Part shown: positions 56,864-60,681 of the stretch, in pieces
Layout: each line of letters opens with the position of its first letter
Position numbering within the stretch: the stretch's first letter is position 1
Assembly (NCBI GenBank): GCA_036339735.1
Contig: JAYZAL010000019.1
Location: 1 to 64,000, forward strand
Direction: 5' to 3'
DNA: 64,000 nt
Source of the DNA: Candidatus Poribacteria bacterium
GTDB lineage: Bacteria > Poribacteria > WGA-4E > UBA9662
The notes under the pieces: model-generated
The model's input: the letters and a program-made list of their open reading frames with translations, nothing else
Databases searched by the model: none
Told to the model about the DNA's origin: nothing
Program-made: the position numbers and the translations under genes

Positions 56864-59158
56864 TTGATTAGTGTAAAAAATAAAAGATTATTTATCATAT
56901 TTCTACTGTCATCAGTGATTGCCCTTGAAACCTATTCTAGTGAAATAAGGGGGAGAGTTCTTCGCCAAGGTTCACAAGAACTGGTTAGTGGAGTAATTGT
57001 GAAAGTTTTGGGAACGGATCAAAAATTTATAACCGATGATCAGGGAGAATTTGAAATAACTGAACTACCAACTGGAACTTATCAATTAACCTTGACAAGA
57101 TTCCGTTTTCGTTCAAAAACAATTGAAGTCTTGGTACTTGACGATCAACCCCTCGATTTAGACGTTCGGCTAGAAAGAATCGATTTCATCTTCGACGAAA
57201 TAGTTGTGAGGGGGCAGCTTTTAACCGAATCGGTCAGTCGTCAAAGTGTGACTGGATTAGAAATAAAGCGTATACCGGGTGCTGGTGGAGATGCGTTGAG
57301 AGCTATCCAAGCTTTACCAGGTATCAAGGCTGGTGCAGATTTCGGAGGTCAACTTTATGTCCGTGGTGGTGGACCAGAAGATAATCAGATCTATTTTGAT
57401 CGTTATCCCTTGGCTAATGCTTATCATTTCGGAGGTTTAGTTTCAACTGTAAGTTCTGAAATTCTACAACGGATTGATATCTATGCTGGTGGATTTGGAG
57501 CTGAATATGGTCAGGATTCGCAGGCAATAATAGATATTTATTCGCGACCTGGTAATCGTAAGAACTTCAGTGGCAAAGTGAATTTAAATATTCTTTATGC
57601 TGAAGGACTGATAGAAGGTCCACTAGGGGAATCAGGGTCTTGGTATTTTGCAGGTCGTCGTAGTTATTTTGACCTTTTTCCGTTAGAAAGAGTAATAACG
57701 GTTATAACAGCATTCCCTAGATTCTGGGATTATCAAACACGATTTAACTACGAAATAAACGAGAAATACCAAATAGATTTTACAGCATTTGCAGCTGATG
57801 ATTTTGCAGAATTGGCTTTTACAGAAGAACAGCAAGATGAAGAAGAACTAAGAGGTGCCTTATACATAAAGAATTCGGCACATGTTCAAGGCTTCCACCT
57901 CCGTGCTTTGCTTACCCCACGCCTAACCTACGATTTTAATCTTTCTCACAACAAACAATTAGTAAATTTCAAGATTGGTCAAGGATTCTTCCTTCGTATA
58001 CAACCTGACGTGTATGATGTTAGACATGATGTAGTATATGAAATTTCGCCCAATGTACGTTTAGAAACAGGTTTGTTAAATTCAATTGGTGACGTTGTCG
58101 TTCAGCTGTTTTTTCCTAATCCTCCGGAAGAGGGAGATCCGAATTACGATTTTTTAGAAGCCGAAAAGAATAGAGTTGATACACAACAGGAAGATTATCA
58201 AGTGGAAGGCTACGTTCAAACACGTTTTACTCTTGGGGAATACCTATCCTTTGCATTAGGAACTCGAGTCGATTATTCTGCAGATTTAACAGCTCAGCCA
58301 ACGCCTCAACCACGTTTAAGTTTTAATTTAACAATGCCAGGATTACCACAATTAAGATTAGCTTACGGCCGTTATATGCAAACACCGCAGCCACCTCAGT
58401 TTTTTGAACCTGGGGGGAATCCAGAACTTGAGGAAAGTCTCTCAGACCATTTTATCCTAGAAATCGAAAGAGCTTTTGAAAATGGTACAGTGCTCAAGGC
58501 TGCTGGTTATCGTAAGCAGTTGGATAAACAGATTGAACCTGATCCTGAGGAAAATCCAGTAAAAAATAAGAATTACCTCAATATTGGAGAAGGTTACGCA
58601 CAAGGTGTCGAATTCTTACTCCAATATCGTCAAGGAGATCGATTTTTCGGTTGGTTGAGTTATGCAAGGTCTGTTTCCAAAAGAAGGGACGATCCAGATC
58701 AAGATTACCGATTTTATTCCTATGACCAAACACATATTGCAACTATCATCGCCAGCTACAAATTTACCAAGACATTTGAGATTGGAGGAAGATGGCAGTA
58801 TGCCACGGGAAACCCCTACACACCATTAACCTGTGAAGAAAATATTAGCAATCCATGTTACGAAAATATTATCAGTCCGAGAGATGGAAAAACTAGAAAA
58901 GTACCTCTCTATGGATCAATAAATTCTTTCCGTGTAGAACCATTTCATCGTCTCGATGTGAGAATCAGCAAAAATTTTGTTTTTGATACTTGGCAAATTG
59001 GAACCTACCTAGAATTAATAAATGCCTATAATCGAAAAAATGTCCTTCAGTTTAGCTATGACGACGAGTATGAACGCGACAAGGATGGAGAAGTGAAGAA
59101 AGACATAGTAGGACAGTTACCATTGCTACCTTATTTCGGAGTAATCATTGAGTTTTAA
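56864..59158 (+). CDS. TonB-dependent receptor with N-terminal carboxypeptidase-regulatory-like domain
   Basis: Signal peptide, 'DEIVVRG', plug 'DALRAIQALPGI..YVRGG..DN', 'AGGFGAEYG', 'NAYNRKN', terminal Phe. Confidence 0.93.
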   Translation: MISVKNKRLFIIFLLSSVIALETYSSEIRGRVLRQGSQELVSGVIVKVLGTDQKFITDDQGEFEITELPTGTYQLTLTRFRFRSKTIEVLVLDDQPLDLDVRLERIDFIFDEIVVRGQLLTESVSRQSVTGLEIKRIPGAGGDALRAIQALPGIKAGADFGGQLYVRGGGPEDNQIYFDRYPLANAYHFGGLVSTVSSEILQRIDIYAGGFGAEYGQDSQAIIDIYSRPGNRKNFSGKVNLNILYAEGLIEGPLGESGSWYFAGRRSYFDLFPLERVITVITAFPRFWDYQTRFNYEINEKYQIDFTAFAADDFAELAFTEEQQDEEELRGALYIKNSAHVQGFHLRALLTPRLTYDFNLSHNKQLVNFKIGQGFFLRIQPDVYDVRHDVVYEISPNVRLETGLLNSIGDVVVQLFFPNPPEEGDPNYDFLEAEKNRVDTQQEDYQVEGYVQTRFTLGEYLSFALGTRVDYSADLTAQPTPQPRLSFNLTMPGLPQLRLAYGRYMQTPQPPQFFEPGGNPELEESLSDHFILEIERAFENGTVLKAAGYRKQLDKQIEPDPEENPVKNKNYLNIGEGYAQGVEFLLQYRQGDRFFGWLSYARSVSKRRDDPDQDYRFYSYDQTHIATIIASYKFTKTFEIGGRWQYATGNPYTPLTCEENISNPCYENIISPRDGKTRKVPLYGSINSFRVEPFHRLDVRISKNFVFDTWQIGTYLELINAYNRKNVLQFSYDDEYERDKDGEVKKDIVGQLPLLPYFGVIIEF

Positions 59159-59562
59159 TGGCTAAATTAACGTCGAGCAGACTAGTTTCCCGAATAACCT
59201 TTCTTTTTCTTTCATTTCAAATTTTTTGTTTGCTCTCCTGTTCTGTGTTTGGTGGAAATTCATGTGGGGGGTTAGAAGATTTGGGTCAGTCTGCCCCAAA
59301 TGATTGCTGCCCTTATCATACATCCAATTCCACAGAAAAGTGTTGTTGGAAAACTGTAGTTATTACAGATCAAAAAAAGCCTCTTAAAATCTCTACGTCT
59401 GGTAACCAAAAAGGGTCTACATTTTTAGCATCTAGTCAAAGTGTGTTGGAGAGACAAAAGCTTGAGGGTCAAATTTGTTTTGTTTTTGTTTTGATTCCTC
59501 ATATTTCTTCAAAAGAATCACTATCCTTACCAAATCGATCGCCTCCTATCTCCATAATTTGA
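59158..59562 (+). CDS. Cys-rich leader protein ending in RSPP (DUF2946/CruR-like putative arrest peptide)
   Basis: N-terminal hydrophobic segment, two CC pairs (DCCPYH, KCCW), C-terminal 'LPNRSPPISII'; ATG overlaps the receptor stop (TAATG). Confidence 0.75.
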   Translation: MAKLTSSRLVSRITFLFLSFQIFCLLSCSVFGGNSCGGLEDLGQSAPNDCCPYHTSNSTEKCCWKTVVITDQKKPLKISTSGNQKGSTFLASSQSVLERQKLEGQICFVFVLIPHISSKESLSLPNRSPPISII

Positions 59563-59621
59563 GTTTTGTTGATGAGTAAAATGAAAATTATGAAAAAACG
59601 ACCTAAGCTATTATGGAGATA
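59547..59621 (+). promoter_or_regulatory. Shine-Dalgarno-sequestering stem (translational attenuator)
   Basis: TATCTCCATAAT (59547-59558) is the exact reverse complement of ATTATGGAGATA (59610-59621), which contains the GGAG RBS of the ATG at 59626. Confidence 0.8.
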
Positions 59622-59625
59622 ATAA

Positions 59626-60681
59626 ATGAAAGATAGAAAAAAGTGGATCTTGTTGGCAATATTGTTTTTTATTTTAAATTCGATACCATATGTCATTGCT
59701 CAAGATGCTTGAGGTGCCTGAAGTAACCCCATAATCCCTGAAATGGGGCCGAGCCGTGAGCTCGATATAGAAACGAAGAAAAAATTTCGATTCACTTTTA
59801 ACGTCACACGTTCTTTCAATGCAGAAGGTGGACATAGTGAAACAGGCGGATTGACAACCGATGGTCGACTAATCGAAATTGGAAACCATTGGCATCACGT
59901 GTCTATGTCAATGAGCCGTTTTAATTTAGGACTGCATTACCAATTAAATCCTCGAACTAAGCTAGCACTAGTCTTACCATATAGTATTAAAAATCAGTCA
60001 GCTGAAATTGAATGGGAAGCCTCAAACCCAAGTGTGAGTGACCAGGATGCAGCTATCCGGAATGGTTATATCCATCATAGAGATGAAACATATCGTGGGT
60101 TTGAAGATCTGAATTTAACGACTAACTACCACTGGAATGGGTTTACATCTATAAAAAACGACAGAATTACTCTGTCTGCTGGGTTGTCTATACCAACGGG
60201 TAAAATTGAACCTGATCCATATAAGCTCGGCGACGTAGGAAAAAAACATTTACATCTGCAGTTTGGTACAGGAACACTAACTCCAAGTTTCCAAGTTATC
60301 TACATATTGCCAGTAAACGATTTGCTGTCGGTACAATCTCGGTTATCATTTCGACGTCCCTTCTACGAAAACAAGTATAGTTTTCTGTCTCCTCCAGAAA
60401 CAAGTACCTATTTTGGTATAGCATTAAAAGTCTCGAATATCCTGAGATTACATGGGTCTTGGATGGTATTTAGGCAAGGATTTGGGTATTGGGATGGAAA
60501 TAGAGATCGAAATACTGGTATGCAAATGCATGCTTTACAATTGGGAACAAACACAACAATTGGTCGAAAAACCCCTTTAAATATTAGCGTAATTGTACCT
60601 ATCCATCAACAAATGCTTAGTACGGGGGATACATTCGAGCATGGTATTCTATTGTCGTCTAGTGTTTCTCATGTCTTTTAA
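59626..60681 (+). CDS. Putative selenoprotein (UxxU) outer-membrane beta-barrel transporter, 351 aa
   Basis: GGAG RBS and ATG 59626 give MKDRKKWILLAILFFILNSIPYVIAQDA*GA*SNPIIPEMGPS..., in frame with the listed ORF at 59743; TGA at 59710 and 59719; 'GLSIPTG', 'LQFGTGT', terminal Phe. Confidence 0.8.
59727..59764 (+). promoter_or_regulatory. Candidate bacterial SECIS hairpins
   Basis: CCCCAT/ATGGGG stem (59727-59748) and CGAGC/GCTCG stem (59750-59764) just 3' of the two TGA codons. Confidence 0.45.

Follow-up and report, generated by a model that had tools for sequence, protein, structure and literature searches.

Selenocysteine (Sec, U) is known in MerT-like proteins, in P-type ATPases and in HMA proteins with a UxxU motif, and most of these transport-related selenoproteins have been implicated in metal resistance (PMC13188914). 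In the main text of that review and of a second one, each of which uses the words 'outer membrane' once, the only outer-membrane barrel selenoprotein named is the GSU2204, or MtrB/PioB, type, which has one Sec residue (PMC13188914, PMC9312934). A 2022 preprint on eight new selenoprotein families mentions the outer membrane just in passing. In the structure of the COG4313 channel Pput2725 (PDB 4rl8), about 14 residues at the start of the chain are described as entering the lumen from the periplasmic side (PMC4493636). For the mer systems, the figure legends of two reviews include no outer-membrane Mer protein, and diffusion steps are drawn there as broken arrows (PMC8261052, PMC3466566). The gene considered here lies in a stretch of 64,000 nucleotides from Candidatus Poribacteria bacterium (assembly GCA_036339735.1, contig JAYZAL010000019.1, positions 1 to 64,000 of the forward strand), which we call the window. 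The gene occupies positions 59626-60681 and contains two in-frame TGA codons close to the start of the predicted mature protein. From the comparative sequence evidence, it is very probably a real selenoprotein gene, with both UGAs decoded by SelA, SelB and SelD together with two conserved downstream hairpins. Taking all the evidence together, we consider it likely that the product is a double-Sec outer-membrane barrel, probably engaged in soft-metal handling.

Under translation table 11, the only open reading frame (ORF) listed at this position is one of 312 codons from ATG 59743, the product of which has no signal peptide. When TGA is read as Sec, the same frame runs from ATG 59626, and the TGAs at residues 29 and 32 are its sole interruptions. 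The preliminary description of this locus had put forward just such a single frame, with a GGAG ribosome-binding site, ATG 59626, a signal peptide and two TGAs at CxxC spacing, and it is borne out on reading the sequence. The predicted signal peptide, recognized by eye, has a basic N-region (MKDRKK), a hydrophobic core and an AxA-like site (VIA), and the same layout, ending in A-Q-(E/D), is found in 20 of 20 aligned homologues. Cleavage at this site would give a mature protein that begins Q-D-A-U-G-A-U-S-N-P, and the final residue is Phe. TGA is an ordinary stop codon in the source genome: in the window, which has a G+C content of 39.2%, the 38 long ORFs end in TAA (16), TAG (13) or TGA (9). 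Furthermore, TGA terminates four of 20 homologous barrel genes themselves.

To follow the conservation of the two TGAs, 61 genomes from the same order were searched in six frames, and 46 of them have a match to the barrel (6/6, 22/22, 11/11 and 6/21 by family). Two in-frame TGAs are present in 61 of the 69 near-full-length matches and one in the other eight. Among 20 loci that were extracted, the codon at site 1 (residue 29) is TGA in 16 and TGC in four, and that at site 2 (residue 32) is TGA in every one; all 20 have a signal peptide followed by A-Q-(E/D)-(S/A)-[U/C]-x-A-U-S-N-P. A scan of contigs from one genome per species gave 249 relatives of the barrel. The best 80 of the 249, all of them with titles of Candidatus or uncultured Poribacteria or uncultured bacterium, were used for a motif count over 81 gene copies, after two extra pattern matches (U..W) that lay in other frames had been dropped. 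The motif is UGAUSNP in 60 copies, CPAUSNP in 16, CGAU in three, and CSAU and CAAU in one each. Site 1 is accordingly encoded by TGA in 60 copies, TGT in 12 and TGC in nine, and site 2 by TGA in 81 of 81; in all 81, the frame 5' of the TGAs is kept, with its signal peptide and motif. Two chance nonsense mutations, which had been judged unlikely from the single sequence, become more so with these proportions and with an invariant TGA at site 2.

Sequencing error at the TGAs had also been raised. Contigs from two other metagenome runs, X4 (covering 59400-59796) and X8 (59400-59954), show zero letter differences over both TGAs, so the codons are identical in independent assemblies. A contig from an RNA library covers 59695-59961, across both TGAs; DNA carry-over is possible, so this contig is no proof of expression. 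Many Poribacteria genomes have two or three barrel paralogues, sometimes in tandem (G045:C1:6235492-6239085, among others), and a typical pair consists of one UGAU and one CPAU form.

Among 1.84 billion cluster representatives searched with a profile, 472 match at E ≤ 0.001. Most matches near the query begin at profile positions 35-60, and therefore gene callers had truncated them at the TGAs. In a word-based search, all 16 matches are 288-313 residues long, unnamed and devoid of a Pfam domain, and the database names of the homologues are 'hypothetical protein' throughout. Full-length homologues of other lineages have Cys at both sites, for example, Q-A-C-P-A-C-S-N-P, A-C-A-G-C-R-N-P and A-C-A-A-C-G-N-P. 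In an alignment of 14 sequences with 23-48% identity to the first of them, C29, C32, N34 and P35 are invariant. The other invariant columns are H71, H91, H150, H151, H207, H209, R152, E154, D161 and several Gly and Pro residues, with the His numbering (H71 to H209) that of the first sequence. Trp, Arg or other residues at the two sites would have spoken against Sec; the homologues instead have Cys, as CxxC in the distant relatives and as CxxU in some of the Poribacteria paralogues.

The gene could also be broken or misread, either through nonsense or sequencing errors, with the start at ATG 59743, or because TGA is read as Trp or Gly. The truncation by gene callers and the short lengths of all 16 database matches would fit such an explanation, as would the one database entry, P0059, that reads W at both sites, and a tRNA-Sec was not found in this assembly. 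However, the in-frame conservation upstream of the TGAs in 81 of 81 copies, the identical independent contigs and the Cys residues aligned in distant homologues are all contrary to it. A start at Met40 would lose the signal peptide, and TGA acts as a stop both in the window and in barrel genes. The comparative data thus contradict code reassignment as well as a pseudogene, and both were rejected; we regard an explanation of this kind as hardly credible.

The machinery for Sec insertion was sought in the source assembly (4.32 Mb, 107 contigs, 92% complete). SelB (362.3 bits, cut-off 242), SelA (579.2, cut-off 268) and SelD (359, cut-off 125) are all present. SelB and tRNA-Sec had been named in the preliminary description as what such a protein calls for: SelB, SelA and SelD exceed their curated cut-offs, but the tRNA-Sec was not found in this assembly, as taken up below. 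The SelD of the source genome contains an in-frame TGA (S-C-A-G-U-A-S-K) and is itself a selenoprotein (locus L017, G000:C70:27515-28441, plus strand). The term that had been applied to the window protein, an exported UxxU selenoprotein transporter, holds for the UxxU Sec pair, given the Cys homologues, the conserved TGAs and SelA/SelB/SelD; 'transporter' is inferred only.

Two hairpins lie downstream of the TGAs (Table 1), and the z-score of the 91-nucleotide stretch that contains both is −2.26. With 20 sequences as input, RNAalifold did not recover hairpin 1, since its register differs from clade to clade, and the sequences were then folded singly. Pairing was counted on a hand-drawn structure over an alignment of 80 sequences: 89.4% of the cells are paired, compared with no more than 48.7% after sliding of the 3' partners, although the structure was drawn from these same, mutually related sequences, which favors it. 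Hairpin 2 is paired in 97.5% of its cells, with CG as the closing pair in 55 sequences and UA in 21, a change in which synonymous Val codons (GUC/GUU) are matched with Leu codons (UUG/UUA). This hairpin has the form GAAGUC-RGUUY-GACUUC in most relatives, and it shifts along with codon insertions. The inner helix of hairpin 1 is 90.6% paired, and its pair 30-36 is GC in 34 sequences, AU in 16, UG in four, GU in four and UA in three, and unpaired in 19. By these counts, conservation extends to both hairpins, and the compensatory changes in them are in part synonymous.

The selD gene of the source genome provides an in-genome reference for the spacing of the selenocysteine insertion sequence (SECIS), since its hairpin, AGAUC-CGGGC-GAUCU, starts 11 nucleotides after the UGA. 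The 14 nucleotides between the first UGA and hairpin 1 are near this value. In an alternative register, the same 3' strand of hairpin 1 pairs with the next Pro-codon CCC as the 5' strand, giving a shorter hairpin that starts 13 nucleotides after the second UGA; for this UGA, no other register has a fitting distance. The RNA was folded in two states, free either from 14 nucleotides past the first UGA or from 14 nucleotides past the second. In both states, 80 of 80 sequences fold at −4 kcal/mol or better, with mean energies of −11.4 and −7.8 compared with −6.6 and −3.7 for mononucleotide shuffles, although 41% of the shuffles also reach −4 kcal/mol in the second-UGA state. A SECIS that re-registers between the two UGAs is thus possible.

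Table 1. Features of the barrel gene and its transcript (window coordinates; Sec, selenocysteine, U)
Feature	Position	Strand	Remarks
Complete gene	59626..60681	+	351 codons plus TAA 60679-60681; two in-frame TGAs read as Sec; translation with TGA = U
GGAG ribosome-binding site	59615..59618	+	7 nt 5' of ATG 59626; read from sequence
Signal peptide, residues 1-25	59626..59700	+	predicted cleavage between VIA and QD; read from sequence
First UGA, Sec29, mature position 4	59710..59712	+	TGA or Cys in relatives; Cys in distant homologues
Second UGA, Sec32, mature position 7	59719..59721	+	TGA in all related copies; Cys in distant homologues
Hairpin 1, CCCCAU/AUGGGG	59727..59748	+	starts 14 nt after first UGA and 5 nt after second UGA
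Hairpin 2, CGAGC/GCUCG, loop CGUGA	59750..59764	+	starts 28 nt after second UGA
Predicted 12-stranded β-barrel domain, residues 54-351	59785..60678	+	invariant His-rich motifs, C-terminal Phe; AlphaFold2, Foldseek

The distribution of Sec and Cys forms was extended with a metagenome scan, for which the 14-sequence alignment was too divergent as a query and a five-sequence alignment worked. The motif in the 67 loci obtained is UxxU in 34, CxxC in 25 (24 of them genuine, the CSKC in L167 being spurious) and CxxU in four. Forms with U-P-A-U-S-N-P (loci L155-L169 and L172-L174) are on contigs of 45-69% G+C, mostly ≥ 52%, and because of this composition the double-Sec barrel is probably not confined to Poribacteria. 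A FastTree tree was made from 139 distinct rows out of 147, with the motif removed and rows shorter than 280 residues or containing X dropped. It is a quick tree with several long branches, rooted by assumption on eight distant CxxC rows. All 111 U-containing rows form one clade with a support of 99. Within this clade, site 1 has changed to Cys at least six times, and site 2 has not changed at all.

An AlphaFold2 model computed with a 20-sequence alignment is a β-barrel (mean predicted local distance difference test, pLDDT, 79.7; predicted template modeling score 0.76), as had been expected from the sequence. The DSSP string of the model can be read as 12 strands, joined by short turns on the periplasmic side and by long loops on the outer side, and this topology would put the invariant His motifs, GGH.E, H.H, IHHR.E.Y.G..D and H.H.Q.G.GT..P, all in the extracellular half. 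In a Foldseek search of the PDB, FapF (5o67) is first (E 2.9e-13, TM score 0.70), followed by the COG4313 channel 4rl8 (E 8.6e-13, TM score 0.76) and then by FadL/TodX with far lower TM scores. A search of PDB sequences with the family profile gave just a chance match of 36 residues (E 0.66). The Pfam family of the COG4313 channels, PF13557 (Phenol_MetA_deg), scores below threshold in two of 12 Cys homologues (18.3 and 19.3 bits, cut-off 22). Of the three ESM-Atlas clusters nearest to homologue P0021, two have PF13557 in 75% and 51% of their members, and the third is a Poribacteria 'hypothetical protein'.

This similarity to 4rl8 and the nearby PF13557 signals could mean that the protein, like the COG4313 channels, carries hydrophobic or amphipathic molecules; the N-terminal pair would then just staple the plug or give it its shape, and the metal-gene neighborhood would be a coincidence. 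In the account of the 4rl8 structure, COG4313 channels are implicated in hydrophobic uptake and not in metals (PMC4493636). However, six invariant His residues with Glu and Asp, the Cys/Sec pair, a fused HMA domain and the adjacency of HMA-thioredoxin, mer and cop genes described below would not be expected of a hydrocarbon channel. Furthermore, one would not expect a purely structural staple to keep site 2 as Sec in all 81 copies. A channel of this kind therefore seems very unlikely.

In the window, the gene order is a TonB-dependent receptor (56864-59158), a small Cys-rich ORF and the barrel gene. The small ORF (59158-59562, plus strand, 134 codons) starts in overlap with the receptor stop and has a lipobox-like LLSC and conserved C36, C50, C62 and C63; it is conserved within the genus only (35-38% identity), with no Pfam match, and from its sequence the product may be a small metal-binding lipoprotein. 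Neighborhoods were counted at 41 metagenome loci of at least 7 kb. A gene for an exported HMA plus thioredoxin protein lies directly upstream of the barrel on the same strand at 19 of the 41, of which two have thioredoxin alone and several are near-duplicates, leaving an independent count of about 13. The stop codon of this gene and the start codon of the barrel often overlap. The 19 include all five of the UPAU-type high-GC Sec loci, and a 20th locus is cut at the barrel. Other neighbors of the Cys and UPAU forms are a MerTP fusion (263.5 bits, cut-off 180), MerA (493.1, cut-off 454.45, in L134), an ArsR regulator, a CsoR-like repressor with a CPG(N/D)CG motif, an HMBD P-type ATPase and CusAB-like resistance-nodulation-division genes. 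One barrel homologue has an HMA domain fused at its C-terminus (43.3 bits, cut-off 24.8); with the even number of strands in the model, this domain would be periplasmic, like the N-terminus.

Several further genes were seen at these and related loci. A Cys-form cluster encodes a Csp1-like four-helix-bundle Cys-rich protein (L135:6959-7282; 47.7 bits, below the cut-off of 100), and another has an S-adenosylmethionine-dependent methyltransferase between MerTP and the CsoR-like gene (L146:5611-6222). In one Poribacteria group (L176, L177, L179, L180 and L183), genes for a BlaI/CopY-type repressor (PF03965) and for a BlaR1-like M56 peptidase (PF05569) precede that of the barrel, with ArgJ downstream of it. 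The source genome has an HMA lipoprotein with an in-frame TGA in the metal-binding loop, G-M-T-U-G-A-S-C (L203, G000:C5:30073-30282, minus strand). Judged from its sequence, it is likely an exported Sec-containing metallochaperone, and it could conceivably act with the barrel as a partner in the periplasm. The same genome encodes another HMA lipoprotein, of the CxxC form (C53:52941-53045).

The thioredoxin domains bear on another explanation, that the UxxU/CxxC motif is a redox centre that cycles between diselenide or disulfide and reduced forms. The barrel would then function in the outer membrane as an oxidoreductase, or as a channel gated by redox state, with an exported thioredoxin to re-reduce it; Cu(II), selenite or tellurite are possible substrates for reduction at the surface of the cell. 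The UxxU spacing is the classical spacing of redox motifs, and SelL is a UxxU protein that forms a diselenide. Thioredoxin is encoded immediately upstream at the 19 loci, in two of them without HMA, and redox motifs are found in most of the prokaryotic selenoproteins listed in the two reviews (PMC13188914, PMC9312934). However, the thioredoxin is fused to HMA at most of these loci, one barrel is itself fused to HMA, and the neighbors are metal transporters and metal sensors. The redox and metal explanations can both hold, because metal binding may be assisted by a redox step. Nevertheless, a purely redox function appears unlikely. We favor a thiophilic-metal site over a pure redox centre because of the HMA, MerTP and MerA neighbors, the HMA fusion and the occurrence of Sec in the metal-resistance proteins of the reviews. 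The thioredoxin partner encoded upstream indicates that the cycle of the Cys forms includes a redox step.

The mechanism that we propose for the metal site is as follows. The gene very probably encodes an exported, 12-stranded barrel of the COG4313/FapF class, with about 326 residues and a mature N-terminus of the form (U/C)xxU-S-N-P. By analogy with COG4313, the selenol pair would lie at, or within, the channel mouth on the periplasmic side, and it would be a high-affinity ligand for a soft metal such as Hg(II) or Cu(I). The invariant His/Glu/Asp cluster would be on the extracellular half of the barrel. Metal would be handed between the channel and periplasmic HMA-type metallochaperones, in either direction. 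For the Cys forms, the HMA-thioredoxin fusion encoded upstream would supply both the chaperone and the reductant that keeps CxxC reduced in the periplasm. We lean toward the core of this proposal, a selenol pair that binds thiophilic metal at the periplasmic channel mouth and passes it to HMA chaperones, as somewhat better than an even prospect.

A bolder version can also be formulated, in which the barrel is the first dedicated outer-membrane part of mercury- and copper-type systems. A diselenol hook in the lumen would take metal from the His cluster and pass it to HMA chaperones. The replacement of S by Se would keep the site reactive in the oxidizing periplasm without the dedicated exported thioredoxin of the Cys forms. 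Decoding of the UGA pair could rely on one hairpin that, while the ribosome moves on by three codons, forms again in another register, keeping its 3' strand and using a 5' strand about 8-9 nucleotides further along. We offer this version tentatively, as possible rather than likely.

A number of observations weigh against the double-Sec metal-handling barrel that we prefer. The first is the tRNA-Sec. This was found in all five relatives tested, two of them of the same genus, with 72.8-78.3 bits, and one of the five is tRNA-SeC(tca) according to ARAGORN; in the two same-genus relatives the gene sits near a contig end. In the source assembly, the best Rfam score for tRNA-Sec is 45.2 bits, compared with a cut-off of 47. 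ARAGORN finds just 35 tRNAs there, with none for Cys, Glu, Lys or Ile, and there is no tRNA-Sec at the site syntenic with the relative's tRNA-Sec flank (L210, G000:C49:9500-11500). With an assembly that is 92% complete, we read the missing tRNA-Sec as an assembly gap, although the gap remains. Second, the second UGA is 5 nucleotides from hairpin 1 and 28 from hairpin 2, neither of which is the 11 or so seen at selD, and there is no Rfam match in 59600-59850 at E ≤ 10. Third, the window protein has no Pfam or NCBIfam match at E ≤ 0.1, and residues 18-33 and 41-46 at the N-terminus of the model have pLDDT < 50; because of these low values, the N-terminal segment is placed in the lumen by analogy. 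Fourth, at 16 Poribacteria loci and the window, no neighbor of the barrel gene is conserved beyond the genus, and the Poribacteria barrel genes, that of the window included, have no conserved metal-related neighbor. The four HMA matches in the source genome are frames of 76-753 residues, none of which resembles the HMA-thioredoxin fusion. The near-duplication among the HMA-thioredoxin loci and the hydrophobic-uptake role of the COG4313 channels, both given above, also weigh against it. One neighbor family that appeared conserved in Poribacteria turned out to be an artefact of antisense overlap and was discarded.

How does the barrel family compare with described proteins? A literature search gave no description of it, although supplementary tables of selenoproteome surveys may list it. 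For Poribacteria and selenoproteins together, one paper was matched, the title of which concerns Sec variants of [NiFe] hydrogenases. Annotation pipelines miss this exported protein, which is widespread in the Poribacteria that were searched, because there is no Pfam or NCBIfam model for the family and the Sec members are truncated in databases. The gene also offers a compact example of decoding at two UGAs, which are 9 nucleotides apart. Furthermore, with site 2 always Sec in the Sec clade and site 1 repeatedly switched to Cys, the family constitutes a natural Sec/Cys experiment.

By fold, the nearest described proteins are the COG4313/PF13557 channels represented by Pput2725, which are likewise monomeric 12-stranded barrels, comparable in size and with a short segment ahead of strand 1. 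The present family differs in having its own CxxC/UxxU-x-N-P start and His-rich motifs, and its context is metals, whereas that of COG4313 is hydrophobic substrates. FapF (5o67, 5o65) is the top Foldseek match, a likeness of fold class only: the identity is 11%, there are no fap genes near the barrel, and by this comparison FapF has neither the Cys/Sec motif nor the His cluster. Given the GSU2204 type, the barrel is not the first outer-membrane barrel selenoprotein. However, the GSU2204 family (NF041027) has one Sec in a CXXCH context, and the window protein has no match to NF041027 at E ≤ 0.1.

By motif, the nearest described proteins are the Sec-containing heavy-metal proteins, namely, the UxxU HMA proteins (NF041115), the MerT/CopZ fusion (NF045683), Sec-MerT and the Sec P-type ATPase, which share with the barrel the use of Sec for Cys in a CxxC-type soft-metal site. 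These are soluble or inner-membrane proteins of HMA or MerT fold, whereas the motif of the barrel is at a free N-terminus in the outer membrane. The mer transport proteins MerT, MerP and MerC are comparable in that Cys homologues of the barrel occur in clusters of the ArsR-MerTP-MerA type and that the Cys pair resembles that of MerT and MerP, but the Poribacteria barrel gene is not adjacent to mer genes. For the passage of Hg(II) and other soft metals across the outer membrane, a CxxC/UxxU barrel with genes for HMA-thioredoxin, MerTP and MerA alongside is a candidate. Thus, this is apparently an undescribed selenoprotein family, which joins a COG4313-like barrel to a Sec pair known from soluble metal-binding proteins.

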